From the NCBI GenBank assembly GCA_965112155.1, contig OZ218099.1: a stretch of DNA of 64,000 nt; one strand, 5' to 3'. The DNA comes from Podarcis liolepis (lineage: Eukaryota). A program made the translations under genes and the position numbers. Every line of letters begins with the position of its first letter. The first letter of the stretch is position 1. Under the pieces are notes generated by a model, which saw only the letters and a list, made by a program, of their open reading frames with translations, ran no database searches and was not told the DNA's origin. Positions 1,915-54,651 of this stretch are shown here, in pieces.

Positions 1915-2115
<201 letters not shown>

Positions 2116-19774: not shown

Positions 19775-20113
19775 GTGAGAGGAGCCTGTACTGCTAACCC
19801 ATTCACCTGCAAGTAAGGAGCAAGCACATGCTTCATTGTGTTCATATAATTTTATGATCATAGGTGCTGTAATTTGGCATAGGTGTGCTAGGACTTGTTT
19901 TTGCTATGCCAACCTGCTGTTAGGTAGGTTGAAGTCAAGCTATAGCAGAAATCCTATACCCCCGTTGTTTTGTATTTTCACGGTTAACAAGCTGTCGAGC
20001 AGTGCCTTCAAATCAGCATGTTATTCCTGGACGCTGTTAGTACCTTCTCAGGTGCTAAGGAAAAGATGCAAAGAGTAGCGTATGGTTTTAATGGTACTTT
20101 TGGTCTTGGGTAG

Positions 20114-20219
20114 GAGTCGTGAAGAGGAGGATACTCTGGAGCAAGCTCGTCGAGTTCATGAAGAAGTCCGACGGCGCCAGGAGCAGCCACCACAGCATCA
20201 TCAACCACCACCACCACCA

Positions 20220-20251
<32 letters not shown>

Positions 20252-20375
20252 GGTGTCAGCAGCAGCCTCTGCTCCCCAAGCACAGAGCTCTCAGCCGCAG
20301 GCTTCTCAGTCCATGCTGGACCAACAGAGAGAGATGCTCAGAAAACGAGAGCAGGAGCGAAGGCGCAGGGAGGCA
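20114..20375 (+). CDS. BRD4: BRD4 exon (poly-Gln, start of C-terminal motif)
   Basis: [25 protein letters not shown]11..[22 protein letters not shown]; donor GCA|gtaagt. Confidence 0.95.
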
Positions 20376-27174: not shown

Positions 27175-28795
27175 TGTTTATTTATTTATATTAAACTTGT
27201 ATAGATCTCAGGGCTGTTCACAGCATAAAAATACAAGATTAAAGCACAAAATATATAATAAAAATAAGCACAAAACCAAAACACCAGTAACCTCTGTTCC
27301 TCCTGCCCAACACATTTTAAAGGGTATAGGATGTCTATTAGCCCAAGACCTGGTTGAAGAGGAACGTATTCGCTAGGCAGCTAAAGGTGGATAATGATGG
27401 CGCCAGCTGGACCTTCCTGGGGAGAGCACACCACAAATGGAGATCCACTGCAGAAAATGCTCCTTCTGTTGTTGCCACCCTCTCATGGAGGAAGCGCATG
27501 AAGAAGGGCTCATATGATGACTGCAGTTTCCAGGTCAATTCATATGGCGAGAGGCGATCCTTGAGATATTGCAGTCCTGAGCCATTAAAGGCTTTATAGG
27601 TCAAAACCAGCACTTTGAATTGGGCCTGGAAGCTAATTGGCAGCTAGTGAAGTCAGGTCAGGATCGGTGTAATATACTCAAACCGGCTTGGCCCCATGAG
27701 CAACCTGGCCACTGAATTCTGCACCAACTGAAGTTTCCAAACTAACTTCAAAGGCAGCCCTACATATAACGCATGTCAGTAATCTAACCTAGAAGTAGAC
27801 CACAGAAGTTAGGCTATCCCTGCCCAGATAGGGGCACAGCTGGGCCACCAGCTGAAGCTGATGAAAAGCACTCCATTCCACTGAGGCCACTTCAGCCTCA
27901 AGTGACAGCAAAGGATCAAGAAGTACCCACCCCCCAAGCTACATACCTGCTCGTTCAGAGGGAGTGTAACCCCATCAACAGCAGACAACCTCCCATCCAC
28001 CCAGTCTAAAGAACCGCTTCAGTCTTACCTGGATTGAACTGCAATTTGTTAGTTCTCATCCAGTTAATTACCAAGGCAAGACAACATTCCAGCACATCCA
28101 CTGCCATACCTGTAGACGTAAAGGAAAAGTAGAGCTGAGTGTCATCAGCATATTGCTGACAACATACTCCAAACATCTGCATAACCCCACTCAGCAGTTT
28201 CATGTAAATGTTAAGCAGCATAGGGGGGAAAGCAAATCCTGAGGAACCCCACACTGAAGGCTCCATGACGCAAAAAAACCACACTCAAGCATTATCCTCC
28301 AGAAATGTCCATCCAACTAGGACTGGAACCACTGCAAAAACAGTGCCACCCATCCTTAATTTGGACAGCCGCTCCAGAAGGATACCATGGTTGATGGTAT
28401 TGAAAGCTGCTGAGAAGTTAAAGAGAGTTAACAGGGACACATTTCCTGTCTCCTGACAGAGATCCTCAAACTGGGCAACCAAAGCAGTGTCTGTGCCAAA
28501 CTTCGGCCTAAACCCTCTTTGAAATGGATCTAGAAAATCAGTTTCTTCCAAGAGCACCTGAGTATGATCTGCGACCACCCACTCAACCTTGCTCATGAAA
28601 GGGAAGTTAGCAACTGGCTGGTAGTTGTTAGATTTTCTGAACTGAAGGTGGGTTTCTTGAGCGGTTTTACCACTACCTCCTTCAAGCAGGCAGGGACCAC
28701 CCCCTCTCACAAGGAGGCATTAATCACCTCCCTGCTAGCTTTTATCAGCCAAGAGGGGCAAGGGTCCAGAGGATGTTATAAGGTCAGCAGTGTGC
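27175..28795 (-). mobile_element. Degenerate L2-clade LINE (RT and 3' end)
   Basis: Minus-strand ORF pieces LDPFQRGFRPKFGTDTALV, FSAAFNTINH, YADDTQLYFSF (28141-28152), LQFNPGKTE, VLTYKA..YLKDRL; frameshifted; (TAAA)n-like tail at ~27175. Confidence 0.9.
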
Positions 28796-29812
28796 CATAA
28801 CCCCCATAATCTACCTGCCTCGAGTGAGTGAATTGTGTCCTGCCTTTAAATATGATTTAGATTTTTTCTCTATTTCATTTTATGCTAGTTTTAATGTATG
28901 TTATTCATTCATTCATTTGCTGTTGTTAATTCACTTTGAGTGAACTTTTGTAAAAAAATACCAACTAGTAAGTTTTTTTATTATTGTTTTATATAACCCA
29001 TTATCCAACCTCCCTAACCATAGCTGCTTACAACCAGTCCAAATACAGTAAAAAGGGTTTACAACAATCCTGAAACATCCTCAGATGCTGCCGAGTCTTC
29101 AGGGGAAGGAAGTCCTGCAATTGCAGATGTTGCCATTGAGAGTGTACACAGATGGTAATCTCAAGCAGGCTGGTATCAGCTGAGTGTTAAGACCACCAGC
29201 ATCTTTAAGAGGTGTACACCATCAAAGGGCTTTACAACCCAAACTAGCATCTTGAGTTGAACTGTATCCAGAAATCACTGAGGAAGAAGTGGAAATACTT
29301 GAAAGGGCTGTAACATGTTCCTTACAACCTGCCCCTGCCAGGAGATACACTCCTGCATTCTGCTCAAAGTTTAAAACGCTAGAACAGCTGGTATTTTGGC
29401 AATGATGAATTATCATGATGGGCACTCCATTGCTACAGAAATGATAAAAACAGTAGTGATGTGACAACCGTTTGAAGCTGCTATGTGACTGACTACATCA
29501 AATATCAGAGCAATAGTAATAGGGTTGCATGGCCAGAATATAAAATGGGGAATCAGTGATGCTCAGTGTGCAGGTGCCTACAAAACCACTAGTAGAAGGA
29601 AGAACTATAAAACATTCAAGTCTCTGTTCTGTGTGATCTCCCCAATTCGCAGTTTTAAAGGGCATTTTGATCAGATGACCCCTCTTTCAAGGGAAGTGTT
29701 ACAAATTGGAAAAAACTCTGCTATTAGTCCCACTTTACAACAGACTACTGGATTAAGTCATACTTTTTACTACAAATGGTTTTGTATGTAGTACAGGCAG
29801 CAGTTGGCAATA

Positions 29813-30714: not shown

Positions 30715-30761
30715 TATTGCCAATAAGTCTGTAATCCTTAACTGAGGATACATTCATTATA

Positions 30762-31015
30762 CAGTGGTGCCCCGCAAGACGAATGCCTCGCAAGATGAAA
30801 AACTCGCTAGACAAAAAGGTTTTTCGGTTTTGCGTCGCTTCGCTAGACGAATTTCCCTATGGGCTTGCTTCACAAGACGAAAACGTCTTGCGCTTTTTTT
30901 AAAAAAGCCACTTGAAGAGGCGCAGTTGCGACGGACCGTGCTTCGCAAGACGAAAAACATCGCAAGACGAAAAGAATCGCGGAACGAATTCTTTTCGTCT
31001 TGCGAGGCACCACTG
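30762..31015 (+). mobile_element. Tigger/pogo-like MITE, family 2
   Basis: TIR CAGTGGTGCCCCGCAAGACGAA..TTCGTCTTGCGAGGCACCACTG, TA flanks, internal cgcaagacga repeats; near-identical inverted copy at 54399-54651. Confidence 0.9.
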
Positions 31016-32679
31016 TAGCTGCTAATAACGCGAGTGACATGTTCTTAGCCACACTAGCAGCAATAGTCATCTTAAGCCTATAGATGGCACATTTGTGTTC
31101 ATTCATGCACACCAAGGAAAGTATCAGCTGGCATGGAGGAAGTATAAGAGACATGTGGGATGTGGGTGGAAACACAGTTCAATGAGATTGAGCACACTCA
31201 GTGGCCACAGAATGCTGTTTTAAGTTTGGGAATAAGAACACATGGAGGGATGATGGATAAGCGTACCCTGGAAGACAGCACTCCATACTGCAACATTTTG
31301 TTGCAGATATAATAAGCAACTTTGTTTTATTATTGAATTGTCCAAAGTGCTGAAGAGCTGGTTTTAATGGTGACACCTAGGACTATTCCTAGAGCTGCAA
31401 GTATCCCTAACACAACTGCGCAGTCTTGGGTTTCTTACCTGTTTTGCACTGGGAGCTGAGTATTATTCTCCTGGGAAAACTGACATCTGAAGCTGTCATC
31501 TGAAGGATGAAACAAATAGGTAAGGTCAGGCATATAAGCAGCAGGATAGCCTAGGCCTGCAACTTAACTTCTGAGCAGATAGATGTCTCAGTAATCAGGA
31601 TTTTGACCATGTTTTATCAAATGTCTATTTTCTACAACATGTTGCAAGTATTTGAACAATTGTGATACTCCAGTGGCAGGCCCATGCAGAGCTTGTCTGA
31701 AGCCTGGGAAGTGTCTTGTCAGAATAAAGTTATAAACTCAAACAAAAAAGCAGCTGGTCCATGGAGGCCGCCTCCCGCCAACTTAGTCCTTCAAGTCCCA
31801 GGGCAAGTATACCTGGCTTCCCACCCACTTTTGCAGGAACATGCCACTGAAAGAGGGAGTCCCCATTTTCTGACACATTTCAGTCCCCAAGATTGCGTGG
31901 GAATAGCTCAGTAATGTAAGGGTTCACTTAATGCCACCCATTTAGTTGAATAATTATGGTGTGGTTGGTACCAATCATTGAAACAAATAGTTCTTATACC
32001 AGGGAGGTGCAGTGAGTGAAGTCTTGTGGTTTCTGATAGTATTGAGGCCAGAGCCAGATGTAAAACACTGGTTTCTGCCATGTGCAAGGGTGGAATTCAA
32101 CTTTTAAAATCTTTCTGTTCACCAATGATGTATAGCTGAAAGCACCTTGGGGAGGGGAAGCAATAACTCAGCTTTGTCCCTTGCTCTTTTTTTACAACAG
32201 GAAATCTGGGGAAGCAATGTGTGTTTGGGGGGGGGATAGCTTGAAAACATTCCTTTTTAAACATTAAGTTTTGTATTCTTTTTCTCTTTAATATATTGTT
32301 AGTGCTGGCTCTTGACATTTTTGCTTCTGTTTTTAATTCAATAATATGTTATATATATATTCAGATTTCTCCCTTCCAAGTAAAATGGTTTTTTTTTATT
32401 ACATGCATACCACGTATCAGGACTCCAGTTCACGGGCAATTTCACAACCTCCATGAGCTGGTGATGTCCAAATCAACTTATCTAACAAGCAATACTATTT
32501 ACATATGAACTAAGCCGAGGATTCCGTTTCCTCCACCCATTTTAGCATGTGACGCTTAAGGCGTCCTGAGAATGAGGATGTGCATCCTGATATTTTCACC
32601 AGCTATCATTGCTGAACTTAACTCTTGAAAAGCCCACAAGCACAGCATGACCATGACAGAACTCTGCTGCTGTTACCAA

Positions 32680-35406: not shown

Positions 35407-35649
35407 ATGGCATCTCTCACACATTTCTTACTGGTCCCCACACGCCTGATGCTGAAGGTCTTTAATGTTATGTCCTGGCTGTCTATGTATAGTGCCGGTT
35501 GCCTTGCTGCTGTCTTCTACTGTTGGTGGGCCCTATGGCAGGTGGTGTCTACGGGCCCTTTCCAGGTGCTCCGCAAGAAGAGGCGGGGGACTCCACCAAG
35601 ATGCCTCACTGATGCCTCGCATGGGGAGCATGGCTTTGTCACGCTAAAA
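35407..35649 (+). CDS. EPHX3: EPHX3 copy A coding exon 1
   Basis: MASLTHFLLVPTRLMLK...PPRCLTDASHGEHGFVTLK (cf. human ..CLSDPSLGEHGFLNLK); acceptor at 35387, ATG in gggATGG context, donor AAA|gtgagt. Confidence 0.9.
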
Positions 35650-35792
35650 GTGAGTACAGTGGCAGGAAAGTGGGGGGGGGGGAGAGGCCATAGTCAGGTG
35701 CTCCTAGCCACAGTCAGGTGCTCACGGACAGCAGCTGAAGCAGGATGTGAAGGCAGGATTCTGGGCTGCTGGTGTATTTGAGAGACTGGGAG

Positions 35793-35990
35793 TAACATAG
35801 GAAACAGCCTATTTCCAGGTCAAACTATTTGACTCTCTAGCTTGATGTTTTCAATGGTGACCGACAGCTGTTCTTCAAAGTCTTAGGGGCAAAGAGTCTT
35901 TCTCATCAGCTGCCTCTTAACAGGAGATGTCACAGATTGTGAACCTGTCACTCTATGCATGCAAAACTCTTGAGCTATTGTCACTGAGCT
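35793..35990 (-). mobile_element. Old tRNA-derived SINE (antisense, same family) in EPHX3 copy A intron
   Basis: aacataggaa..cagcctat..gtcaaactat..ggagatg..gaacctg..atgcatgcaaa..cactgagct; homolog at ~47087-47258 in copy B. Confidence 0.55.
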
Positions 35991-36038
35991 CTTGTCTGTG
36001 TGTAACTGTCCTATTTCTCTGTCCTTTGGGGGCTCAAG

Positions 36039-36124
36039 AACTCAGGGCTGCGTCTCCACTATGTTGCTGCTGGCGAGGAAGGAGCCCAGCTGATGCTTTT
36101 TTTGCATGGTTTTCCCCAGAACTG
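36039..36124 (+). CDS. EPHX3: EPHX3 copy A coding exon 2
   Basis: [29 protein letters not shown]; AAG acceptor, donor TG|gtaagt. Confidence 0.92.
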
Positions 36125-36759
36125 GTAAGTGTCGCTGTGCTGTGTGGTAGTTAGAAGAAGTGCAGTGTCTGGAGCTGATATCAATTTACTGCAGGTGTGG
36201 CTCATGCAGGAAGTCAGCCCACAGATCTGTTGGCCAATGTGTTAGAGGAGTTTACTGCAAAGTTAAGGAGAAGGTATTGAACAAAAGGATTAACTTCCCT
36301 AAGGAAATGACCTAGAGGAGATGATGCTACTCAGCTACATGCTATCAAGTTTCTATGATGCACAGTGAATGACCATCGGGTGTTCACCATTAGTATTGCT
36401 ATTACCATGCCTTTCTTCCTGACAAGACTAAAGGTGGCTTTCGGATTAAAAACAAGAATAGCTAAAAACATAGACAAAAGCTATCATTAAAAACAATTAA
36501 ATCTTAATAGAATTAAAACTATATACAGATATAAAATCTATTTAAACCATATGAATAAGTACAATAAAAACAACACCAGTCCTTTCATTAAAAGCAGTCA
36601 ATTCCCAAAAGCCTGATGGAACAGATGAACAACAAGGGGTGAGCCATTATTCAAAACATATATATACAACAAATGGAGAGGCAAAAACTATAAAAGCTGC
36701 AGAGCAGGGAAGCTCTCCTCTCTACTTAATCCCATTGTGATTTGGCTGTATTTCAACAG

Positions 36760-36935
36760 GTTTGCATGGCGCCATCAATTGCAGGAGTTTAAGCGGGCAT
36801 TTAAGGTGGTGGCCCTCGATTTGCGGGGCTATGGCTTTTCCGACGCACCAGCTGGTTCTGAGCACTATCAGAGGGAAGCTCTGCTGGCAGATGTACATGG
36901 TGTCATTGACGCTCTGAGCCCCAGTGAGAAGAATG
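36760..36935 (+). CDS. EPHX3: EPHX3 copy A coding exon 3
   Basis: [30 protein letters not shown]...ALSPSEKN; donor ATG|gtgaga. Confidence 0.92.
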
Positions 36936-37169
36936 GTGAGAGTGAAAATGGTTGTTTTGGAGGAAGGGTCCGGTTTGCCACTGCAGTGGCTTGGCTACTG
37001 CCAATGGGAGGAGAGGGCCATGCATTCAACATACTTAAGCTTTCAAGTGTTACATTGATGCTTAATGGGGTTTCCTTGAAATGAATCAGTGTTTGGGTTG
37101 GGGAATTGTCAAGCAGGCTGATACTTGTCCACATTGTCCCTGTTCTGATGCCTTCTGTTTGTCTTTTAG

Positions 37170-37298
37170 AGATTTCTAAGTGCATCCTGGTGGGACATGA
37201 CTGGGGTGGATCCATAGCTTCTGAGTTTGCTGCCTGTTACCCCAATTTGGTAGAGAAGCTTATTATTATGAATGCAGTTCAACCACATGTCTTAGCAG
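37170..37298 (+). CDS. EPHX3: EPHX3 copy A coding exon 4 (nucleophile Asp)
   Basis: [43 protein letters not shown]; Asp codon GAC at 37199-37201. Confidence 0.93.
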
Positions 37299-37905
37299 GT
37301 GAGTTGTGCTATCGGGATTTGGTACTCACTACGATTGTGTGCAGCTTTTGGCATTCACTAATTAATTCTAAGCAGGATTGGAAAAGGGAGAGAGGAGCCT
37401 GAATCTGCCAGGGACTAGTCCCTGCTGCACAGTTAAATGGTCACTGTGACTGCATTGCCCTTAGGATGCAGAGCCTGCATAAGCCATCACTGTTACGCTA
37501 CAGCTCTTTTTGGAGGAAGAAGGGAGGTTGTCTGATCTATCTAAGTGCCTGACACCAACACACCAACACGGCTTATGATTAGATGAAAGCCTTGTACTAG
37601 GAGTACATTTAAAAACACAGCCACCCAGCTCCCCCCCCCCCACTGCTTGGACTGCAAGTTGATCCAGATGTTAAAGGGAAATAAATGAGAGCAACCCCAG
37701 TTGAGCCCTCTATTTTGAAGATAGTTTTCTGGTTGTGGTGATTTTGTTTCTTTTTTTTTATAAAGTATTTTTATTTCAGTAATGCACAAAATAGATCCAA
37801 AAGCAAATAAAAAGAACAAAGGGCCATATATTGGTTCTCTTGATGAGTAGTTCTGGTGATATTTAATGTGTGGCAGGGCAGCTTATTTTCCCTTCCACCT
37901 TGCAG

Positions 37906-38009
37906 AATATTTTTCACGATATCCCACCCAGCTGCTGCGCTCCAACTACATGTTCCTGTTCCAGCTGCCAAAGCTGCCAGAGCTCCTGTGGTCCTTAGAT
38001 GACTTCTAT
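37906..38009 (+). CDS. EPHX3: EPHX3 copy A coding exon 5 (first lid Tyr)
   Basis: EYFSRYPTQLLRSNYMFLFQLPKLPELLWSLDDFY; Tyr TAC at 37947-37949. Confidence 0.93.
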
Positions 38010-39138
38010 GTGAGTGCAGGGTGGGGAGTTTGCCTCACCATTCATGCCTTCTTGCATTAGGAATATAAATACAGCAAATCTCTTTTCCAAGCTGTCTGTG
38101 TAACTTTGTGAAGCCAAAGCGCTTTATTCTCTGCTGGTGACTGTTCATTCACTTCGCTCAATGCTGAGCTACAAATCTTAAATGTGTTTCATGGGCATAT
38201 CCCAAACCCTTCTGCCAGGCTGCTTTCAGCTCTGCGTGAAGGGTGATTCTCTCTGCTTTGCTTTGTAAGAAGCATAACCCTGTCTCTTCTGCCCCCTCCA
38301 CCCCAGCCTCACTCCATATAGAGAGTGCCTTGTGTTTAAAGCTCACCTGTAATAAATCTGAAAGAGTGGTGTTCCAGTTTTCAAACATTCTTTGGAACCC
38401 GAACTTCCAACGCAGCTTCTGCAGCTTCCAATTGAGTGCAGGAAGCTCCTGCAGCCATTCGGAAGCCGTGCCTTGGTTTTAGAACATTTGGAAGTCAAAT
38501 GGACTTCTGGAATGGATTACATTCTAGAACCAAGATACAACTGTATTTACGCTAAACAAGGGGCAGTCATAACCTATTCAGACATTGCATACTATGAACT
38601 AGTGGGATATGTGAGCAGGCACAAGTACATTTGCTTTGATACCCTCTCTGGATTATTTGGAGGGTGCCAATCTGTGACAGGGAGGCTGCTCTTTATGTAG
38701 GCTCCTCTTGTGATGTAGAGCCCTGGAAAATCTACATTGCATGGGAGGCCTACCTGAGTCAAGTAGAAAAGTCTCCCTGCTGCAGATGGAGCTTGTGGAC
38801 ATAGGTAGGAGCTAGTGCATTTGTCTTCACTCATGTGAAGATCAGTAGCAGATAACCTTTGTGTGGATAGTGGAGGAAGGCAGGCTGGGAAAAGCTTTAA
38901 ATATTACTGAGCTGATCTATCAGGTAAAGACATATGGGCAGGGACAGTTTTTTGTTTTTAAAAGGAAGCAACACTGTTTACTCCTTTGCCCTGCCCAAGG
39001 TGGTTTAAGCAAATATTTTTTACAAAGCTTTCTAGTAGCATGAGCTGCCTCTGCCTTATTGAGGAGACTGTATTGTACAGGACGAGGAGGTGTGCATTTA
39101 ATTAGCCTCTACATGCTGCTGTGTCTTTTTCTCTACAG

Positions 39139-39278
39139 CTAATAAAGTCTGTTATGACTAGCAAGAAGACGGGAGACCAGAATCATTTGACAGAGGAGGA
39201 GTTGGAGGCTTACCTGTATGGCCTTTCAAAGGACAGGGGTCTAGAACCACCCATGAATTACTACAGGAACATGTCCAC
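39139..39278 (+). CDS. EPHX3: EPHX3 copy A coding exon 6 (second lid Tyr)
   Basis: LIKSVMTSKKTGDQNHLTEEELEAYLYGLSKDRGLEPPMNYYRNMST; canonical splice sites. Confidence 0.92.
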
Positions 39279-39705
39279 GTGAGAGCCCATTTATTCCCAG
39301 CTTTGATAATGGGTGGGATTGGCATTTTTTCGCAGAGGAAGAAACTGCTTGGCAGCAGTAGCCTTCTGCTCCTAATAATTGGAGGGCACCAAATTCTTTG
39401 TTGGATCATGTGGTGCTGAGGGGCAAAACACTCTTCCTCCTCCACAAATCTGTGTTTAAATTTCAGGAAAGGGGATGAGAAAATCTTGTGACCATTCTGA
39501 GATACTTTAATTTCTAAAAGAATGTTCATTTATAGAATTGGAATTAAAGTGTGGGTGTGCTGCCTCCCGATTATGTCATGGCTGCAGTGCATGAGCCTCC
39601 CTAGGGTGGAAAGCGACACAACTCTGATAAGTGGCACAAAATGGTGAACTGATTTATGTCCAATGCCAATTTGCAGATTTCTTTTCTGTGTATCTTCTCC
39701 TACAG

Positions 39706-39925
39706 TTGGGTTCGTGCAAAGTGCAAGGATATTGTGGTGCCCACCCTGCTGATCTGGGGAGAAAAGGATGTATTCTTGGAAAAAGGGCTTGTCATACCCA
39801 TGGAGCAGAAGGTGTGCAAGAACATCAAGGTGCAGCTCATCCCTGAAGCCGGCCACTGGGTCAGTGAGGAGCAACCAAAGAAAGTCAATCAACTGATGTG
39901 GGCTTTCCTCCTTCAGAGAGACTGA
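39706..39925 (+). CDS. EPHX3: EPHX3 copy A coding exon 7 (catalytic Asp and His, stop)
   Basis: WVRAKCKDIVVPTLLIWGEKDVFLE...IPEAGHWVSEEQPKKVNQLMWAFLLQRD*. Confidence 0.93.
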
Positions 39926-40130
39926 GATGGAAAGAGGCAGTGACTGCTCTGTGCACTACAAGCATTCCTACCACCCAGCATGCAGGAAATTACAAGAACA
40001 GCCATTTGACCTGACACTGGAGATCTGGTCCTTCTCTGTGCCCAGTGGAATGTTTCTATCCTATATTGGAACATGAGTCACATGCAACTTTTAACTGGTT
40101 TTGCTGCAAGTCTGTGTTCCGTTGCACTAC

Positions 40131-40136
40131 AATAAA
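40131..40136 (+). promoter_or_regulatory. EPHX3 copy A polyadenylation signal
   Basis: AATAAA ~205 nt after the stop; same position in copy B (52550-52555). Confidence 0.7.
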
Positions 40137-41527
40137 AATGATTTGCTTCAGGGTTTCTGATATGGGCTTCCTGATGGTGAAACTGCACAGCAGTTGCATT
40201 CAACAGGTCTTCCAGCTCCCTCCCTCTGTAGTATACAGGCATTAATACTCACAGAAGAGCACAGCTTTTCCTTCTGTATTTTTTTTTTGTTGGGTGTGCC
40301 TTAGCACAGCAGAATCTGGAGCGAAGCTATGTTCCCTGTTGCTGTTTCACACCCATTTTCAATGGCATCTTACTACCCTGGCAAACTACACAGGAAAGCG
40401 ACCCTTGGCATGGATCATATTGAAATAAATGTTTTCAGCCTTCTTACTTCACTGTCTACCTGGAATGAGTTAATGACACATTAGGAGGAAGCTGCTTCTT
40501 AACATGTAATATTACCTGGGAACATGACTGTGCCTGAGAACATCTTGGTAACGCTTGGGGGAATTAGTTGGATGTCTTAAGAAGAGGCTTGAATTAATCC
40601 ACTGCTCATGCCAAAGAGAGGGTGCAGTGATTGATCTCATAGTGTGTGCCTCATCCTGCATGTGGTGGACTGGAGAAACGACAAGAAAACCCCCAGTGGG
40701 TGTGTACATATGTGCAAAAGGAACATATATAGGTGACTTACAGGAACACAACTGGGTGGAAACTTCACATCTGCCAGGACTAAAGCTAGTCATTGCTCTG
40801 GGAGAGAATGTCTGCCCATGAGGCAGCCTCCATAATAAAGAGGAGTTTTGATACTACAGGTATTGTTCCCCAGTGTTGTGGACCTGATGCTCCAAATGGT
40901 GGCAGTCTGAAGTTGGTACAAAGCAGATGTGCCCTTTGGGCATATTCTCTAGAATTACAAGGTAAAGGTACAAGAGTGTCTAGTGTGAATTGTGCCGCCA
41001 GCTATGCTGCTGCTGTGCAGAGGCAGGAATTGAGTCAGGGATGGAGTGGCAGTTCCTAATACTACTCTGGGCCAAATTACCTGTGATGTTTTGTGTTTAA
41101 ACAAGTGTGCTTGACTTGCCTATTTTTATTTTGGAGGAAAAGCAGCCACAAGGCCCTAATCTGTGATATGCTTCCAATCCATTTGAGTTACCAGGACTGG
41201 TTTTCTGCTGAACATTACTCCCGCCAAGCTGCTCTGTGCCCTTGAAAGTTGCATGTAGTTTTGACCCTCGGCGGACATCTGATAGCTCAGAAGTACCAGG
41301 ATCTGAGGGCCAGGTTAGGCTCAAGGCAACCTGCGGCCAAAGCACAATCAGCAAGTTCTAGCGGATGAGGAAAGGCTTCTGCCTTTCCACCTGTCTGTTT
41401 CCGCAGACCAAGCTTCAAGACTTCTTGAAGACAACAGGCTGTCTTGTTTGACCTTCAGCTTTCTTTAACTAGGGTTTATGTTGGCATTCAATTGCTGTGG
41501 TTAATGCTGCATATTATCAAATAAATA

Positions 41528-41741
41528 CAGTGGTACCTCGGGTTATAGACGCTTCAGGTTACAGACTCCGCTAACCCAGAAATAGTACCTGGGTTAAGAA
41601 CTTTGCTTCAGGATGAGAACAGAAATTGCGTGGTGGCAGCAGGAGGCCCCATTAGCGAAAGTGGTACCTCAGGTTAAGAATGGTTTCAGGTTAAGAATGG
41701 ACCTCCAGAACGAATTAAGTGCTTAACCCGAGGTACCACTG
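41528..41741 (+). mobile_element. Tigger/pogo-like MITE, family 1
   Basis: TIRs cagtggtacctcgggtta/taacccgaggtaccactg; TA flanks. Confidence 0.9.
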
Positions 41742-43152
41742 TAATGATAATATGGTCTAGCATCATCATTATATAGCTCCCAGAAACAACTGCATTGTTC
41801 TTATATTGACAGGTCTGCTACCCTGGGCTACTTTGGAGAAAGGGTGGAATATAAATGTGTAACTTAAATATATAAGTAAATAAATATATAAATAACATAA
41901 ACAAAACATGGGGCACAGTGGCGCTAATGTTAACACACATTTTAAAATGTAGAGCAGAGCATCTTTTGCTTCAGCTTAGGGTATAATGTATTAGCAAATA
42001 TGAAACTCGTGCTATTTTCCATTCCAGAATCACTATTTTCTGCCAGGCATGTGATCAGAGGTGCTAATGAATCATCTGCAGTCAAGCTAGGAGGCAAGTG
42101 GTTGCTTCAAGCGAGCACATGTGTATGTGTCTAAACCTGGAACATGTAAAGTTAAATGTCAAGGAGAGGAGTTCTTGATTAGCATTTTTCCCAGACAAGC
42201 TTTTTAATTTTCTATGCCAGGTAATTATTTTTTAAATGGGGGAGCATTTAATTCAAGAACCATATATATCAGGCCTTGGAATCTTGATGAAAATATTGCT
42301 GTCTTGCAGCTCCACTACCAAAATCTATCTCCTTTATGGAAATCTGTAAGGGCAGCATTGAGGAAGGGGCAGTTAAGGTGGGTAGGACACAAAGATGGTT
42401 AAGTTATTGTAGCGTTAGAAGCAGAGGAAATCCCACGATTTTTATACCCCTCTCTGGCATTAAAAATACAATGAGAATAAAGTAACAAAACATTTGCTTC
42501 CCCTTCCATGACACTCAAATCACACTGCCTGTCATTGTTACTAGATCTCCTTGTGTACCAGTTCACACATGCCCACGATCCGTATCTCACACATATATTT
42601 ACAGAAAAACCTGTAATGGGGAAAGAGCAATATCATCTTTTGGAATCTTTAGTGGAGACTGTTGTGAGCCACAGACTTTCTTGCAATGGACCTGATTATC
42701 CAGCTTAAGTTTGGGGGAAATTGAAAAAAACACACACAATAGCATAGCTCACTTGGGGAAACTAGCAATAACCACACCAATGCTACAATCAGAGTATGTA
42801 TGAACAAAATACATTAAGGCTCATGACAGCAACTGCTGGCAAAGTTATACAGTGCATGCTTGGTTTCACTCTGAAGCTAGAATACAATCAGTACAGTACT
42901 GTACTTCAATGTTTGCAGGGGGAGCCACCTTGTGGATTCTGTGTGCAACACCTACTCCTTTAGTTCTGAAAGTGACATTAAAGCGAATGGGGGAAATTAA
43001 ATTTCCCAGGTAGGGACAGGGGACTGATCAGGGCCTCATGTCATTTTGCCTTCAGAAAGGGGTGGTGGTGCTAGTGGGACAGGGAAAAGCACAAAAGGTG
43101 CCCAAGAGTAGTGCAGCTCAGTCGATGCCCCTTCCAACTTAACCCTCTAGGT

Positions 43153-44869: not shown

Positions 44870-45660
44870 GCCGCCGTGCCTGACTTGTAGGAGGCGGGGT
44901 CTCCTTTGGGTGAGATCCGGCCCTGCGCCCGGACCCTCCAGGCCTGGCTCCCTGGGCGCTCGCTCTCTCGGCGCGCCCTCGAGATCAAGCAGGCGAGCGG
45001 GCAGGGAGCAGTTGTGGACGAGAGCCGCCCCCGTCCCTGAGCGGGCTCAGCGCAGGCTTCTCATCCCTCTGCCGGAAAGAGGCCTGGTCGGCCGAAACCC
45101 ATTCGCCTTCCTGGTCGCTCCGACGGGCGGAGCTCTGCGCCCGAAGCAGCCGCGGAAGGAGCAGGAGGCCCCGGGAGGCGGGGAAGGAAGCTCTGCTGCT
45201 CCCTCGCCTTGCCGCCGCGTCTTCCCTTGGCGCGCGGGGAGGAGCTGGAGGGGCGGCGCTGCCTTTATAAAACGGAAGCCGGAGCGAGTGGGTCGCGGGA
45301 GCAGGGGGAGATTGAACGCGCCCGGGCGGCGTCGAGTGACTCCCCGCTCCTTGAGGTACCGAGAGAGAGAGTTTCGGTTGCCCGCGCCACTGACTATCTC
45401 AGCTTGGGAGCCCCACCGCTTTATCCGAAGGCAGCCAAGAACCCAGCCGTGTTAGCAGGCGAGCACCCCCGCTTGGGTTTGCTGGATACCGAGACCTTGC
45501 TCGGTTGAGTTCCTATAGACACGCGTCGTGCCTACCGTGCAGGACTCCCGTTTGTAACGCGGCTGAGTCCGAGTTTCTGGTCTTCTGAGAAAGGACTTGC
45601 AACCGGTAGTGTCGTGGCAGATCCCGAAGTGCAAGGTCCTCATAACAGCCGCGCCCCTTC
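44870..45660 (+). promoter_or_regulatory. CpG-island promoter of EPHX3 copy B with TATA box
   Basis: Very CpG-rich; GC box at ~45250 followed by TATAAAA at 45266-45272; candidate non-coding exon 1 donor GAG|gtaccg near 45356. Confidence 0.8.
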
Positions 45661-46740: not shown

Positions 46741-46983
46741 ATGGCCTCTCTCTATCGCCTCTTACTGATCCCCACACGACTGATGCTGAAGGTCTCTAAT
46801 GCCGTGTCCTGGTTGGTTGTGTACAGTGCCGCTTCCCTTGCTGCTGCCTTCTACTGTTGGTGGGCCCTGTCGCTAGTGGTGTCTAGGGGTCCTTTCCAGG
46901 TGCTGCGCAAGAAGAGACGGGAGACTCCACCAAGATGCCTCACTGATGCCTCGCATGGGGAGCACGGCTTTGTGACACTAAAA
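46741..46983 (+). CDS. EPHX3: EPHX3 copy B coding exon 1
   Basis: MASLYRLLLIPTRLMLK...HGEHGFVTLK; acceptor at 46721; donor AAA|gtgagt. Confidence 0.9.
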
Positions 46984-47305
46984 GTGAGTACAGTGGAGGG
47001 GAATGGGGAGGCTTCCAGCCATAGTCAGGTGCTCACAGACAGCTGCTGAAGGCAGGATCCTGGTCATGTACTGTACAGGTTGGGAGGAACATAGGAAGCT
47101 GCTTATTGCCAGGTCAAACTATTTGTCCCTCTACCCTGATATTTTCAAAGGTGACTGGTAGCTGCTCTTCAAAGTCTTAGATGCAAAGTGTCTTTTCCCT
47201 CAGCTGTCTCTTAACAGGAAATGTCACATATTGTGAACCTGTCACTATCACTGAGCCCTTGTCTGTGTGTAACTTTCCTATTTCTCTGTCTTTTGGGGTA
47301 TCAAG

Positions 47306-47391
47306 AATTCAGGGCTGCGTCTCCATTATGTTGCTGCTGGCAAGGAAGGAGCTCAGCTGATGCTTTTCTTGCATGGATTTCCCCAGAACTG
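47306..47391 (+). CDS. EPHX3: EPHX3 copy B coding exon 2
   Basis: [29 protein letters not shown]; donor TG|gtaagc. Confidence 0.92.
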
Positions 47392-48108
47392 GTAAGCGTC
47401 GCTGTTCTGTGCGGCAGTAGGAAGAAGTGCAATGCCTGGAGCTGATATCAATTTACTCCAGGTATGGTTCATGCAGGAAGTGACAGGCTACAGATCTGTT
47501 GGCCAACGTGTCACGTAATACCTCTCTGGCCAGCAAATTCCTGCAAAGTTGGGGCAAAGGTCTTAGACAGAAATATTAACTTCCCGAAGGAAGGGACTTG
47601 ATTGCTGCTATCCTCTCATGGTGAATGACCATAAGGCCTTCATCATTAAATTGTAATTAATACAACTTTTTTTTAGTGTTGACCTTATGCTGCATAGAAT
47701 CAGAAGCAACATGATTTACAGTAGACTTACAGTTTTAACAAATGTAAAAGAGGTCATGATAAATTAAGCAAAAGCTTGGTGGGGGTTTCTTGATTTTTAG
47801 AGGGTGAGGAAGCGAAACGAGGTGAATACTTATATTTAATTAAAATACCTTTAAATTGTCTTTCATCTAAAGATCCTAGGGTAGTGTACAATAAGCATTA
47901 ATAAAATCATTTGTACACAATATAGAAATACAGTTCAGACCAGCAACCTTTGTAACAAATAATAAACAAACCAAGCAGCAAAAACTGTAGAAGTTACAGA
48001 GCAGGACTAAAGCAACACAACAAAAGTAGGCACTGATGTCCTGGAATTTTCAGTTAGGGAAGCCCTCCTCTCTGCTTATCTCTTTATGGTTTGGATGTAT
48101 TTCTACAG

Positions 48109-48284
48109 GTTTGCATGGCGCCATCAATTGCAGGAATTTAAGTGGGCCTATAAGGTGGTGGCCCTTGATTTGCGGGGCTATGGCTTTTCCGACGCACCAG
48201 CTGGATGTGAGCACTATCAGAGGGATGCTCTGCTGGCAGATGTACATGATGTCATTGAAGCTCTGAGCCCCAATAAGAAGAATG
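48109..48284 (+). CDS. EPHX3: EPHX3 copy B coding exon 3
   Basis: [58 protein letters not shown]. Confidence 0.92.
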
Positions 48285-48510
48285 GTGAGAGTGAAAATGG
48301 TTGTTTTGGAGGAAGGGTCTGGCTTGCCATTGCAGTGGCTTGCCTTCTAGCAATGGGAGGAAAATGCCCTCTGCTCAGTCTTGCTAAGCTTTCAGAAGTG
48401 TTGCATGGGTGCTGAATGGAGCATTGTGGGGATGAACTGGTATGTGGGTTTGGGAAATTATCTAGCAGGCTTGTAGCTTCCCATAGGCAGATACTTACTT
48501 GTCCATGATA

Positions 48511-48618
48511 GGTTGTGTCCAACTCAAAGTAGACTCACTGAACTTATGAACCTAAGTTACTCATGTCCATGAACTTCACTTGGTCTATTTTGAGTATGAT
48601 AAGCACTGAATACAGCCC
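48511..48618. mobile_element. Old palindromic MITE in EPHX3 copy B intron 3
   Basis: ggttgtgtcca..tgaatacagccc ends with inner ctcaaagtagac/gtctattttgag symmetry; absent from the matching copy A intron. Confidence 0.6.
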
Positions 48619-48657
48619 ATTGTCTCTGTTTCATTGCTTTCTATTTGTTCTTTATAG

Positions 48658-48786
48658 AGATTCCTAAGTGCATCCTGGTGGGGCATAACTGGGGAGGAAT
48701 CATAGCTTTTGCATTTGCTGCCAGTTACCCCAATATGCTGGAGAAGCTGATTGTCATGGATGCTGTTCAACCACATGTTTTATTAG
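48658..48786 (+). CDS. EPHX3: EPHX3 copy B coding exon 4 (Asn at nucleophile position)
   Basis: EIPKCILVGHNWGGIIAFAFAASYPNMLEKLIVMDAVQPHVLL; AAC at 48687-48689; acceptor tttatag, donor TAG|gtaagt. Not in the supplied ORF track. Confidence 0.92.
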
Positions 48787-49193
48787 GTAAGTCTTGTACT
48801 GCCCCATGATTTTAGTTCTCACCATGGCTATTGGCATTTTCTAGCTCTAAATAGGATTGTGGATGGAAGAGAGAAGCCTGCAGAACTGTAAAAGGCCACC
48901 ATGACTGCATTGCCCTTAGGATGCAGAGTCAGGGTGGGCCATCATTTCACACCACAGATCTTTTGGGAGGAAGAGGGAAGGAAGTTGTCTGCTTTGCTCA
49001 AGTTCCCAACCCCAACACACAAGCATTGCTTGTGAATAAATGGGAGCCTGGCAGCAGGGCTTTTTTTAAAAAAAAAAAACCCCGATCCTCCCTGTCCTCA
49101 TTGCTTGGACTGGAAGTTGACGCAGATGTTAGGGGAAAATAAGAAGCAACTCCAGTTGACATCTTTCATTTTATTTTGAAGATTGGTTTCTGA

Positions 49194-49312
49194 GAGTGGC
49201 ATTCAACTAAGTTTTACATAGAGTGCACCTGTTGAAATGAATGGACCTAACTTATTCACATTCACTAATTTCAGTGGGTTTGCTCTAACTGAAACATAGT
49301 TGAATACCACCC
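49194..49312. mobile_element. Old palindromic MITE in EPHX3 copy B intron 4
   Basis: gtggcattcaacta..tagttgaataccac inverted ends. Confidence 0.6.
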
Positions 49313-49389
49313 AGTATCTGGTGGCATTTCATGTGTGGAGAAATTGGCACTGCCCTGACACACAACTTACTTTCCCTTCAACCTTGCAG

Positions 49390-49493
49390 AATATTTTCCA
49401 CGACATCCCACCCAGCTGCTTCGATCCAACCACATGTTTCTGTTCCAGCTCCCAAAGCTACCAGAGTTCCTGTGGTCCTTAAATGACTTCTAC
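49390..49493 (+). CDS. EPHX3: EPHX3 copy B coding exon 5 (His at first lid-Tyr position)
   Basis: EYFPRHPTQLLRSNHMFLFQLPKLPEFLWSLNDFY; CAC at 49431-49433. Confidence 0.92.
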
Positions 49494-50657
49494 GTGAGTT
49501 GAGGGAATGGTTGGGGAGTGGGTTCAAAAGCTCATGTTCTGTCATGCAGATTAACCAAAGGGTCCAATCATTTTATTCTGCTCTGGGGTCTGATGGTTCT
49601 CTTCCACAATCCTAAAATACAGTTCTCCACTGTGTTTTATGTATTCATCCCGAATTTCTCTGTCAGTCTCCTTTCAGCTCTGGGTGCAGGGTTATTATTA
49701 CTATTATTTCTAAAATTTCTATACTGCCCTTCATCCAAGGTCATGCACTGGGCTCTCTGTCTTGGTTCATGAAATGCATAATCCTGTGTCTTCTCCCACC
49801 TGCCTACCTTTAGATACACATGGCCTGGCTTTTAAAGTTTATTTCTAAGGTATTGGCAGTGCTTCCCCCCCCCCCCAAATTAGTGTTTAGGGGTACTCTC
49901 ATTTTGACTCAAGAAAATCACTATTTTATAATTCAGATTAGAAGAAATAAATACAGTAAATGGACAAAAGTGCAAAGATTCACAAAATGTTTGGGGTATG
50001 CATACCCCTGCGTCCCCCCAGAAGAAAAGCACTGGGTGAGATGTGGTGAGATTATTACCTAGAGTCTGGGATGAAAAGGCCATGGCAAGCTATGACATGT
50101 TCTAGTGCTGCCAGAGGGAGGGAGGACTATGACCTTCTTATTCCTTCACTTCCCCATCCATTCTCCCCCCCTGCCGCTTGGCATACGAAAACGTAGCATA
50201 CAAAGTTTTTTAGTCAGTGTGGAGATGAGTGCTGGGAAAGGCTTAAACTGTAGTCCAAAACACAGTCCTGCATCCTGTTCTCACAGTGACCAGCCACGTG
50301 CCTATGCAAAGCCCCAAAGCAGAACCTAAGCACAATAGCACTCTCCCCTCCTGCAGTTTCCAGCATCTGGCATCCAGAGGCAGGCTTCCTCCAGCTGTGG
50401 AGGCAGAGCATAGCCATAATGGCTCCTGGCCATTCGAAAGCCTTCCCCTCAATGTCAATGCATATGTCTAATCCTCTTTTAGGATCAGGGCCAGCACAAA
50501 GGGAAAGGGGGGAAAAGAGACAATGCTGCTTCCTCCTTTTCCCAGCAAAGACTAAGGGAGAGTAAATATCTAAAAATGGCATGAGCTGCCTCTGGGTCAG
50601 ATAATGGGGCGTGCATTTAATCAGCTTCCACATGGTGCTGTGTCTTTTTTTCTACAG

Positions 50658-50806
50658 CTAATAAAATTCATTATGACTGGCAAGAAGACAGGAGCCCAGA
50701 ACCCAGCACGCCGTTTGACAGATGAGGAGCTAGAGGCTTACCTGTACAGCCTGTCAGAGTGTGGAGGTTTAACACCAGTCCTGAATTACTACAGGAACCT
50801 GTCCAC
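50658..50806 (+). CDS. EPHX3: EPHX3 copy B coding exon 6
   Basis: LIKFIMTGKKTGAQNPARRLTDEELEAYLYSLSECGGLTPVLNYYRNLST; 9 nt longer than copy A, in frame. Confidence 0.92.
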
Positions 50807-51415
50807 GTGAGAACCCATTCCTCCCCAGATTTGCTCACATGTGGTATTGGCACCATATGCTTTTCCTCAGTTGTGGTGCACCAGTACATTCAGGCTTTCC
50901 CCTTGGGGGTGGGTGGGACTTGTTTGGCAGCAAGAATTTTCTAGTCATAATATTTGGAGAGGTCACAACATTCTTCACTGGATTATGGGATGCAGGGAAC
51001 AAAACACTCTTCCTCCCTAAAATATATTTCTAAATGGTGGTAAAAGGGGATGAGGAAATCCTGTGACTGTTCTGAAGGGGATTCTGAGATATTTTAACTT
51101 ATGGTGAAATGGGAAAGGTTGGGTTCTAGAATTGGAACTGAAGTGTGTGCATGCTGTCTTTCTGGATTTCTATTGATTTTTCTCATCACTGCTGTGCATG
51201 AGGCCTGCTAGTGTGGAAAGTGGTACGGTTGGCCGCAACTTGGGTAAGTGGCCAAAGTGGTGAGTTGCCTGCTGTCCAGTGCAGATTCGCAGGTGTCTTC
51301 TCTGTGGCTGCATTCAGATGTGGGGTTTTTTTTTTTTGGTTTTTTTTTGTTGGTTATAATGCTAGTGCTTCTCTCCTAGTTGCTAATGATCCTTTTACAC
51401 TGCAGTATCTCTGTT

Positions 51416-51779
51416 GGGACGCGGGTGGCGCTGTGGGTAAAACCTCAGTGCCTAGGACTTGCCGATCGTATGGTTGGCGGTTCGAATCCCCGCGGCGGGG
51501 TGAGCTCCCGTCTTTCGGTCCCAGCTCCTGCCCACCTAGCAGTTCGAAAGCACCCTAAGTGCAACTAGATAAATAGGTACCGCTTTATAGCGGGAAGGTA
51601 AACGGCGTTTCCATGTGCTGCGCTGGTGCTGGCTCGCTAGAGCAGCTTCGTCACGCTGGCCACGTGACCCGGAAGTGTCTCCAGATAGCGCTGGCCCCCG
51701 GCCTCTTAAGTGAGATGGGCACACGACCCTAGAGTCGGACACGACTGGCCCGTACAGGCAGGGGTACCTTTACCTTTAC
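51416..51779 (+). mobile_element. Sauria SINE (Squam1), full length
   Basis: gggacgcgggtggcgctgtggg..ggttcgaatccc..ggggtacctttacctttac; perfect 10-bp TSD tatctctgtt (51406-51415 / 51780-51789). Confidence 0.93.
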
Positions 51780-52132
51780 TATCTCTGTTGCATTATGTAA
51801 CTGTGGCTTTTTGAGTGATATGGCACCATGCCACGCTACATTTTAAATGGTGTGGGAAAACTGTATGCCAGGATAGCACCCCAAATCTTATCAATGCAAA
51901 ACTCCTAGTGATTTTCTCAGTTAACGGGGTTGCAAACAGGTTTTGGGTTTTTTGGAAAACATTAACATGAAAATGAGCTCTAAACTTGTGCTAGAGTGCA
52001 CTAGATGTCCAGCAGTAGCTTTCATGTCATGTGGAAGATCACAAAACACACACAAATAAACAGGCAAGTAAACATTGTGAAGGCTGAACAAAGTGCCATC
52101 TGAATGTGGCCTGTGTATCTATATCCCTACAG

Positions 52133-52352
52133 TTGGGTTCCTGCAAAGTACAAGGATATTCTGGTGCCCACCCTGCTGATCTGGGGAGGAAAGGATGGAT
52201 TCCTGGAACAAGGGCTTATCCCATGTATTGAGCAGAATATGCGGAAGAGCATCAAGGTGCAGCTCATCCCTGAAGCCAGCCACTGGGTTTGTGAGGAGCA
52301 ACCTGAAAAAGTCAATCAACTGATGTGGGCTTTCCTCCATAAGAGAGACTGA
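52133..52352 (+). CDS. EPHX3: EPHX3 copy B coding exon 7
   Basis: WVPAKYKDILVPTLLIWGGKDGFLE...IPEASHWVCEEQPEKVNQLMWAFLHKRD*. Confidence 0.93.
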
Positions 52353-52549
52353 AATGGAAAGAGGGAGTAACTGCATTCTGCACTGCAAGCATCCCTCCCA
52401 CCCAGGAAATGACAACAGCAGGCATTTGACCTGATACTGGAGGGCTGATCCTACCCTGTGTCCTGTGGAATGTTTCTACACCATATTGGAACATGAGTTC
52501 CATGCAGCCTTTAACTGGTTTTGCTGCAAGTCTGTGTTCTTTGCACTAC

Positions 52550-52555
52550 AATAAA
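52550..52555 (+). promoter_or_regulatory. EPHX3 copy B polyadenylation signal
   Basis: AATAAA in a 3'UTR homologous to that of copy A. Confidence 0.7.
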
Positions 52556-53114
52556 AAGGATTTGATTCAGGGTTTTTGATACGGGCTTCCTGATGGTGAA
52601 TCTGCACAGCTGTTGCATTCAGCAAAAAATCTTCTATCTCACTCCCTCTGTAGCATGGCGGCATGAATACTCATGGAAGAGCACAGCTTTTCCTTCTATA
52701 TCGCTTTTTGTTGAGTGTGCCTTAGCACAGCAGAATCCAGAACTAAGCTGTGTTTCCTGTTGCTGTTTCACACCCATTTTCACTGGCATCTTACTACCTT
52801 GGCAAATGGTACTACACAGGAAAGCGACCCTTGGCATGGATCACATTGAAATGTTTTCAGCCTTCTTACTTTACTATCTACCTGGAATGAGTTAGACACA
52901 TTAGGAGGAAGCTGCTTCTTAACATGTGATATTGCCTGGGAGTGTGACTCTCCCTGCGAAAGCATGTCAGTTGGTTCATGAAGCAGCCTCCATGGTAAAG
53001 AGGGGTTTTGATACTGTTCCGTTATTGCTCATCCCATTGTTTTGGATCTGACGATGCTCCAAACGCCTGCAGTCTGTGAAAGTAGGTAGAAAGTACAGTT
53101 GTTCTTTGGGTATA

Positions 53115-53323
53115 CAGTGGTACCTCGGGTTACATACGCTTTAGGTTACAGACTCTGCTAACCCAGAAATAGTACCTTGGGTTAAGAATTTTGCTTCAAG
53201 ATGAGAACAGAAATCGTGCTCTGGCGGCGTGGCAGCAGCAGGAGGCCCCATTAGCTAAAGTGTTGCTTCAGGTTAAGAACGGACCTCCGGAACGAATTAA
53301 GTACTTAATCCGAGGTACCACTG
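53115..53323 (+). mobile_element. Tigger/pogo-like MITE, family 1
   Basis: Same TIRs and body; TA flanks. Confidence 0.9.
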
Positions 53324-54398
53324 TATTACATAATATTGCAAGTTAAAGATGGAAGAGGGTTTCTAGTGTGCTGCTGTTGTGCAGCTGCTGTGCAGAAGTG
53401 GGAAATGTTTCGGGGATGGAGTGGCAGGAGCTAGTATTACTCAGGGTCAAACTACCTGTGATGTTAGCTGTGTGTTTAAACAAGTGTTGATTTATCTTTG
53501 CTCTATCTGATCACCTTTATCTTTGAGGAAAAAGCCACAGGGCTCAATCTGGAACATCCTTCTGCATCACAGCCTGCCCCTGGTTTTCTGCTGAACATTG
53601 CTGTTTGTCCTTGAAAGGATCATGTAGATTTGGCCCTTGGCAAACTTCTAATAGTCCAGGAGGACCAGGATCTGAGTGTCTAATAAACAAACCAATGTGG
53701 GTTTTCCTTGGGCCAGTAATTCAGCTAGATTGGGGTTCAGCTGGAGCCACCATAGTGCACCACCTCAATGCCTTGGCTAGCCTAGCTCTTACTCCTTTGT
53801 GCTTTTTCACAAACCATTGTGTAAAGGCTGCCATAATTGCTTGGACTAATATTAGGTGAGGGCATATACTGAGCTGATTTGCTTCTCCAATGTCTGTCCC
53901 TTTCAGGCTAACATTCTCTTGTTTCCATCCACCCAATTTTCTTTTTAAGTTCAGGGTTAGTTTAGTACCATATCAGAATATGTACTTGCGTCCCTAAAAC
54001 AGAGGTAATAACATATTAGTATAAATCAGGGAGCCTGGAAATGGTGTGCCAATATTTCAGGATTCCGGGCAGCTTTTTTACTGAGCACAAACTATAGCTG
54101 GTTAGTCTTAGATGTGACAACAGCTGTCTTCATTGTGAAATGTCACATCAGCTGTCATTTTTCTCTTCCAGTCAAGCATGTTTCTTCCTCTGTTTCTTGG
54201 TGAGGAAACCATGTGATGCCTCACAGACATTTAAACGAGGGTCGGAGAACCTGTGTTTTTCTAGATTTTATTTGATTACAACTCTTCTCATCCCTGACCA
54301 TTGGCCACGTTGGCTTGGGCTGAAACTGGGTGCCACAGCATCCTCATCTCTGAACTAAAAAAAAAAAATCACCTTGCTTATATGTCCCTTTATATGTA

Positions 54399-54651
54399 CA
54401 GTGGTGCCTCGCAAGACGAAAAGAATTTGTTCCACGAATCTTTTCGTCTTGCGATGTTTTTCGTCTTGCGAAGCACAGTCCGTTGCAACTGCGCCTCTTC
54501 AAGCGGCTTTAAGAAAAAAGTGCAAGACGTTTTCGTCTTGCGAAGCAAGCCCATAGTGAAATTTGTCTAGCGAAGCAACGCAAAACCGAAAAACCCTTTC
54601 GTCTAGCGAGTTTTTCATCTTGCGAGGCATTCGTCTTGCGGGGCACCACTG
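54399..54651 (-). mobile_element. Tigger/pogo-like MITE, family 2
   Basis: Reverse-complement near-copy of 30762-31015; TA flanks. Confidence 0.9.

Follow-up and report, generated by a model that had tools for sequence, protein, structure and literature searches.

Copy B of a tandem pair of EPHX3 genes in Podarcis liolepis is a conserved and expressed lacertid duplicate, and we favour, with middling confidence, the reading of its sequence as that of a near-inactive, substrate-binding pseudoenzyme. Its nucleophilic aspartate is replaced by asparagine, and the aspartate that it carries after strand beta6 is likely to be incidental. The earlier note on this DNA had pointed to these two Asp/Asn exchanges as a pair. 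We regard the swap itself as of little importance; the convergence of the nucleophile change with snakes, together with its retention and likely reversion, is the stronger finding.

The window, that is, the whole 64-kb stretch of DNA analysed, holds the 3′ end of a BRD4-like gene and then two tandem seven-exon EPHX3 genes, copies A and B, on the + strand. The features are as follows.

701-20465, + strand: 3′ exons of the BRD4-like gene, including Gln/Pro-rich low-complexity exons
35407..39925, + strand: EPHX3 copy A, seven coding exons, 365 aa, canonical D/N/Y active site (gene model, RNA-read splice joints, tree)
35407-35649, 36039-36124, 36760-36935, 37170-37298, 37906-38009, 39139-39278, 39706-39925, + strand: coding exons of copy A
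37199..37201, + strand: nucleophile Asp179 of copy A, GAC, in GHDWG (six-frame scan, gene model)
37271..37273, + strand: post-beta6 Asn203 of copy A, AAT, the ancestral squamate state (gene model, alignment)
45290..45353, + strand: 5′ non-coding exon of copy B in a GC-rich promoter region, start approximate, joining at about 46720 (X1 contig joint 45353->46720, sequence)
46741..52352, + strand: EPHX3 copy B, seven coding exons, 368 aa, intact ORF (gene model, RNA joints, orthologs)
46741-46983, 47306-47391, 48109-48284, 48658-48786, 49390-49493, 50658-50806, 52133-52352, + strand: coding exons of copy B
48687..48689, + strand: nucleophile position of copy B, Asn179, AAC, in GHNWG (six-frame scan, gene model; unedited in spliced contigs)
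48759..48761, + strand: post-beta6 position of copy B, Asp203, GAT (six-frame scan, gene model, structure model)
49431..49433, + strand: first lid (epoxide-polarising) position of copy B, Tyr changed to His226, CAC (aligns with the Tyr of 5NG7 and 4O08)
50790..50792, + strand: second lid Tyr291 of copy B, kept (alignment)
52194..52196, + strand: canonical charge-relay Asp317 of copy B (WGGKD), kept (alignment)
52281..52283, + strand: catalytic His346 of copy B, kept (alignment)

The name BRD4 is presumed from its sequence, and BRD4 and EPHX3 are neighbours in human too. Every intron in the gene models of copies A and B is bounded by GT-AG, and the two proteins are identical at 291 of 368 positions. 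Database relatives are named epoxide hydrolase 3 or 3-like, and the closest are Podarcis proteins with 98-99% identity. Both gene order and phylogeny place the copies in the EPHX3 ortholog group: the BRD4-like gene adjoins both of them, and in a squamate EPHX3 tree (with EPHX4 absent) A and B form a clade with an SH-aLRT of 99, or 97 with Rhineura. A tree of 51 rows pairs A with B and leaves Rhineura (D/N/Y) outside. Copy B is clearly EPHX3 by descent. When the lizard's own genome was searched with exon 4, four candidates were scored and three matched, namely B, A and a distant locus (C6) that reads GHDWGG; this last locus, with 51% exon-4 identity, is likely to be EPHX4.

The similarity between A and B reaches into the introns, the 3′ UTR and the promoter, which indicates a whole-gene duplication. 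Two regions are more alike than the other parts: exon 7 with the 3′ UTR (39686-40540 vs. 52111-52960, 85.5%) and exon 3 with its flanks (36706-37119 vs. 48056-48471, 84.4%). The A-vs-B dS was 0.13 in exon 7 and 0.11 in exon 3, against 0.29-0.49 elsewhere, and gene conversion between the copies in these two regions is possible. Elsewhere in the window, short ORF fragments at 27300-29500 (− strand) look like those of a decayed LINE reverse transcriptase. Short interspersed repeats, several with inverted ends, lie at 41525-41743, 51416-51777, 53114-53325, 54400-54650 and 30750-31050, and the first two of these have a very high RNA-read depth.

The exchange described in the earlier note was seen again in coding exon 4 of both genes, where copy A reads GHDWG...KLIIMNA and copy B reads GHNWG...KLIVMDA; N179 and D203 of copy B are 24 residues apart. 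A third active-site change in copy B, from lid Tyr226 to His, had been missed. For the structure, the P. lilfordi B protein (P0007; 364 of 368 residues identical to copy B of the window) was examined as an AlphaFold model (84-row alignment, mean pLDDT 92.7), in which residue 179 directly follows strand 173-178 and residue 203 directly follows strand 196-202. The alpha/beta hydrolase fold with its cap is present (8AGN is the best match, with E 1.4e-27 and a TM of 0.90 scaled by target length), as are the H-G-X-P oxyanion motif (HGFP, residues 104-107) and the catalytic His and charge-relay acid (His346, Asp317). The lid pair His226/Tyr291 is that of Cif-type enzymes and not Tyr/Tyr, and Asp203 in the model matches the position of the acid in beta6-acid enzymes (DhaA/LinB, Cif), with Asp317 present too. 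In all described alpha/beta epoxide hydrolases, the nucleophile is an Asp that forms an ester intermediate (PMC5340866). Copy B lacks the G-H-D-W-G of a catalytic epoxide hydrolase and has Asn179 both in the DNA and in spliced contigs. A catalytic residue is lost in a gene that is intact, expressed and constrained, as would be expected of a pseudoenzyme.

Two further residues were noted in copy B. Glu187 (48711-48713), found in all 22 Asp lizard rows, is now Ala or Asp, and residue 287 in exon 6 is Val where most rows have Pro. The difference GHW vs. SHW beside the catalytic His was set aside; it is variable family-wide, and copy A holds the derived state.

We surveyed the nucleophile in the wider family. 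Among the 146 alignable sequences of the 150 best 50%-cluster representatives, it was Asp in 142, Asn in 1 (a snake) and another residue in 3. Single models with Asn were seen in hoatzin and painted-snipe (P0063, P0134), and Gly was seen in the turtle Pelusios and one other representative (P0035/P0226, P0314); all of these could reflect either errors or additional losses. Several EPHX3-like models are listed for Emys and for Chrysemys (P0032 cluster), suggesting separate turtle duplications. The literature searched, in which most subscription journals are missing, yielded no paper on the lacertid EPHX3 duplicate or the snake substitution, and neither a natural Asn-nucleophile epoxide hydrolase nor EchA Asp131. 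The label 'epoxide hydrolase 3' or '-like' on copy B and on the snake proteins is likely misleading.

The B cluster has 17 members, of which 15 are listed, and every one of these 15 carries N179/D203/H226. They come from five lacertid species (P. raffonei, P. lilfordi, P. muralis, Lacerta agilis and Zootoca vivipara), and each of these species has an A copy with D/N/Y. The agreement of these members with the spliced contigs excludes sequencing error for N179/D203. The ORF of copy B is intact in six genomes. In the 51-row tree, the stem length was 0.095 for B and 0.12 for A, and in 15 species pairs the divergence of B was smaller than that of A in 12, equal in 2 and larger in 1. Copy B is altered only at 179 among the 67 columns that are invariant in 26 non-snake Asp rows. 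We found no excess of copy B changes at conserved columns (7 of 21 in B vs. 7 of 24 in A, p = 1), on which ground its general relaxation or remodelling at such columns was rejected. The changes at 179, 203 and 226 were fixed together on the copy-B stem, along with S183I and the loss of Glu187.

For expression, 6-12% of the raw RNA reads in each run were examined, together with contigs; no indexed run listed for the sequence is catalogued as RNA, and the evidence of expression comes from mapping the raw reads. Copy B was spliced in all three raw-read runs examined and in contigs, and four of its six coding introns have RNA joints among the joint rows listed. At the exon 3-4 joint, the reads of B and A numbered 4 vs. 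49 in X23, 2 vs. 20 in X24 and 1 vs. 0 in X21. Both spliced forms were found in X1 contigs with a B:A depth of 59.8:56.9, contig depth being a poor measure. The variation of the B:A ratio among X23, X24, X21 and X1 hints at different regulation. The rarity of B reads in X23 could be taken as a sign of a relaxed duplicate drifting towards a pseudogene, as could the fairly high A-vs-B dN/dS of 0.41 (dS 0.26) and the ratio of about 1.0 in exon 7. However, the exon 7 ratio is owing to its low dS, and the intact ORF, an evolution no faster than that of A and the single change in 67 invariant columns make such drift very unlikely.

RNA editing of AAC to GAC, which the earlier note had named as a thing to check, would restore Asp in the copy B message. 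When copy B was the sole mapping target, A>G at 48687 was seen in 9 of 13 reads of X23 and in 4 of 8 reads of X24. The apparent A>G arises because these reads derive from the paralog, copy A. Their loose 5′ ends are the end of copy A exon 3 with two run-specific letters, and immediately past the stretch of exon 4 that A and B share, the read depth is down from 13 to 3.8. The first 37 bases of this exon differ between the copies at two places only, counting the run's own letter at 37195, and copy-A letters from cross-mapping appear also at 49431, 49460 and 49482 in exon 5. The spliced B contigs of X1 (depth 59.8) and X13 (6.0) retain AAC and have no other letter across exon 4, and about 4 + 4 B-derived reads, estimated in bulk by subtraction, retain A at 48687. 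At the majority level, and judged from RNA set against the DNA of the window, 48687 is not an ADAR recoding site, and restoration of Asp by editing is scarcely credible. The RNA around this codon folds into a paired stem, which was computed without a shuffle control and is not counted as evidence.

Of 18 snake species, 15 likewise have an Asn nucleophile in EPHX3; they belong to Python, Liasis, Crotalus (three species), Protobothrops, Vipera, Ophiophagus, Naja, Notechis, Pseudonaja, Laticauda (a poor model with the beta6 site unaligned), Pantherophis, Pituophis and Ahaetulla. It is Asp in two Thamnophis species and in Erythrolamprus (two copies, both Asp). The snake EPHX3 rows are P0031, P0040, P0045 and P0205-P0224, and P0042, P0219, P0043 and P0225. 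Topologies were tested on quick trees with the trait columns left out. A single source for the Asn of lacertid B and of snakes was rejected (p-AU 8.5e-10), and the Asp→Asn change arose twice in squamates, independently in these two lineages. A clade of Asn snakes only was rejected as well (p-AU 0.002), which means that the Asp snakes nest within the Asn snakes, and a clade of Thamnophis and Erythrolamprus is allowed by the AU test (p-AU 0.375). These two genera share K44, S71 and D212 in 4 of 4 rows and T207 in 3 of 4, all absent from 14 Asn rows. In a published phylogeny, Natricinae and Dipsadinae group together with weak support (PMC3682911).

The snake stem is long (0.40), and one gain of Asn on it followed by one reversion would be the simplest reading of the sequences; several parallel gains of Asn in snakes are possible. 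A reversion from Asn to Asp in Thamnophis and Erythrolamprus is likely from the nesting and the shared residues. Both genera prey on toxic amphibians, and a link between the reversion and this diet is speculation. Among the 120 listed matches of the snake query, we found no second, Asp-bearing EPHX3 of the Asn snakes, and most sampled snakes seem to be without any Asp-bearing EPHX3.

We compared the rest of the active site in the Asn lineages. His346, Asp317, HGFP and Tyr291 are kept in all 14 Asn snake rows and in all six B rows. This retention does not discriminate between an active and an inactive protein, because 61 of the 67 deeply invariant columns are unchanged in Asn snakes too. Three changes of lid Tyr226 fall in squamate Asn lineages (to His in B and in Crotalus horridus, to Asn in Notechis scutatus), and none in the 26 squamate Asp rows. 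The association has a p-value of about 0.008-0.019 by branch length in a post hoc test, and of 0.04-0.07 leaving out B. Such drift in Asn lineages suggests that the ring-opening chemistry may be relaxed.

It had been proposed that the Asp after beta6 compensates for the loss of the nucleophile, so that Asp203 was selected after Asp179 was lost and preserves active-site charge or catalysis. D179N and N203D do fall on one branch, the copy-B stem, and not on separate ones; squamate rows have a beta6 Asp in copy B only. The expected co-occurrence across squamates holds in six of six B genomes, but it breaks down in snakes, which have Asn179 without a beta6 Asp wherever the site is aligned. We counted nucleophile/beta6 pairs in 256 aligned rows of at least 150 aa (8 shorter rows dropped; isoforms included, so that rows are not independent) and found D/N in 98, D/D in 58, D/S in 43, N/N in 23, N/D in 17 and others in 17. 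The N/D rows are 16 lacertid B rows and one painted-snipe model, and the N/N rows are snakes. A beta6 Asp stands beside a normal nucleophile in 58 of 209 rows, those named being birds, and with a normal nucleophile the site tolerates N, D, S, G, A and C. The nucleophile has been lost in five lineages of EPHX3 orthologs (lacertid B, snakes, hoatzin, painted-snipe and Pelusios, the last three being unverified single-species models), and a new beta6 Asp accompanies the loss in one of the five, lacertid B.

An acid after beta6 assists the His and not the substrate, and is unable to replace the nucleophile; DhaA and LinB have their catalytic Glu there, and EchA has a back-up Asp. A second acid is unneeded in copy B because Asp317 and His346 are retained. 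The beta6 Asp of Cfl1 points away from the catalytic His (PMC8244358). With N/N snakes and D/D birds as well, the compensatory swap is very improbable; Asp203 may have a small local stabilising role.

The pseudoenzyme reading supposes the following mechanism. In EPHX3-type enzymes, Asp179 would attack the epoxide to form an ester, which His346 and Asp317 would then hydrolyse. Asn179 would block ester formation and leave the fold, the N-terminal helix, the pocket and the HGFP motif intact. Copy B would thus hold epoxy-fatty acids or epoxy-acylceramides without turnover, buffering or shielding them, and hydrolysis would be left to copy A. Snakes would have arrived at this state on their own, in an EPHX3 that has no sister copy. 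We infer the activity loss, the ligand binding, the tissue and the substrate; reduced ring-opening in copy B is supported by the drift of lid Tyr226. Several points stand against this reading. The retained His346, Asp317, HGFP and Tyr291 are what a latent enzyme would need, although, as said above, they are not discriminating. Cif-type hydrolases function with a His as their first lid residue (PMC8244358), and the likely reversion in Thamnophis and Erythrolamprus implies that the machinery stayed usable. The Tyr226 test weakens without B, and copy B has no excess of changes at conserved columns. A purely regulatory role beside a sister copy fits poorly with most snakes, which seem to lack an Asp-bearing EPHX3.

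The main rival to the pseudoenzyme reading is a latent enzyme, in which Asn179 would become Asp inside the folded protein through a His346-activated water or a substrate adduct, so that Asp→Asn would be nearly neutral or a timer. It would explain the repeated gain, the long retention and the reversion of Asn, and the nesting of Asp snakes inside Asn snakes that seem to have no second Asp copy. There is also a precedent: Pries et al. in 1995 reportedly saw DhlA D124N reactivate by deamidation. The kept His, acid and Tyr291 would serve it too, but their retention is the background of conserved columns. Moreover, the reactivation of engineered mutants is said to be slow, lid Tyr226 drifts in Asn lineages (even to Asn in Notechis), and the rarity of Asn family-wide (1 of 146) argues against near-neutrality. 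We consider a latent enzyme unlikely, but the snake data make self-deamidation more worth testing. In its full form, which we hold slightly more doubtful, lacertid EPHX3-B and snake EPHX3 would self-mature through their own His-Asp pair with a built-in delay that arose twice and was hard-coded back in natricines/dipsadines; the delay may be of use, for example, in epidermal renewal. A changed chemistry is more improbable again. Here the His346/Asp317 (or Asp203) dyad and His226/Tyr291 would activate water or substrate without a covalent ester, or carry out another epoxy-lipid reaction. The joint fixation of changes on the B stem speaks for it, as does the combination of a His/Tyr lid and a beta6 acid, which copies the Cif arrangement (PMC8244358). 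However, the Asn179 of snakes comes without the two further changes, the beta6 Asp of Cfl1 is directed away from the His in the same source, and no precedent for an Asn-nucleophile epoxide hydrolase turned up in the literature searched or in the family survey.

We compared copy B with known systems. It is like EPHX3 (EH3/ABHD9) in HGFP, Tyr291, Asp317, His346, the BRD4 neighbour and its place in the tree, and differs by the Asn nucleophile, the first-lid His and the Asp after beta6; copy B and the snake change are a new variant within the known EPHX3 family. The substitution is the same, at the same elbow, as in the laboratory mutants DhlA D124N and fluoroacetate dehalogenase RPA1163 D110N, whereas in squamates it is natural, fixed in lineages and arose at least twice. 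Asp→Asn is the usual substrate trap for this enzyme class, and PDB titles show fluoroacetate dehalogenase (FAcD) Asp110Asn crystallised with intact substrate. Copy B shares with Cif, Cfl1 and Cfl2 an acid 24 residues past the nucleophile and a lid pair of His and Tyr (PMC8244358), but those enzymes retain the Asp nucleophile and copy B has Asp317 as a second acid. Cif-like enzymes are remote bacterial homologs of copy B (E 1e-17 to 1e-25). NDRG, neuroligin and GID1 are alpha/beta-hydrolase pseudoenzymes which have kept the fold, lost a catalytic residue and taken a binding role. In contrast to them, copy B is altered only at the nucleophile and one lid Tyr, and its nucleophile change is chemically reversible and has likely reverted in one snake group.

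Nature has twice fixed a textbook laboratory knock-out, once in a lacertid duplicate and once in what is apparently the sole EPHX3 of most sampled snakes. The matched natural pairs, A vs. B and Pantherophis vs. Thamnophis, would help to tell a lipid-binding pseudoenzyme from self-deamidation. In mouse, EPHX3 hydrolyses the epoxy-acylceramides of the skin barrier (PMC7948417) and may control flux against SDR9C7 (PMC7948417, bioRxiv 10.64898/2026.04.08.717327 and PMC13162623). It is speculation that a non-cutting binder shifts the epoxy-acylceramide balance in squamate skin, and the finding bears on whether squamate skin handles epoxy-ceramides unlike that of mammals.
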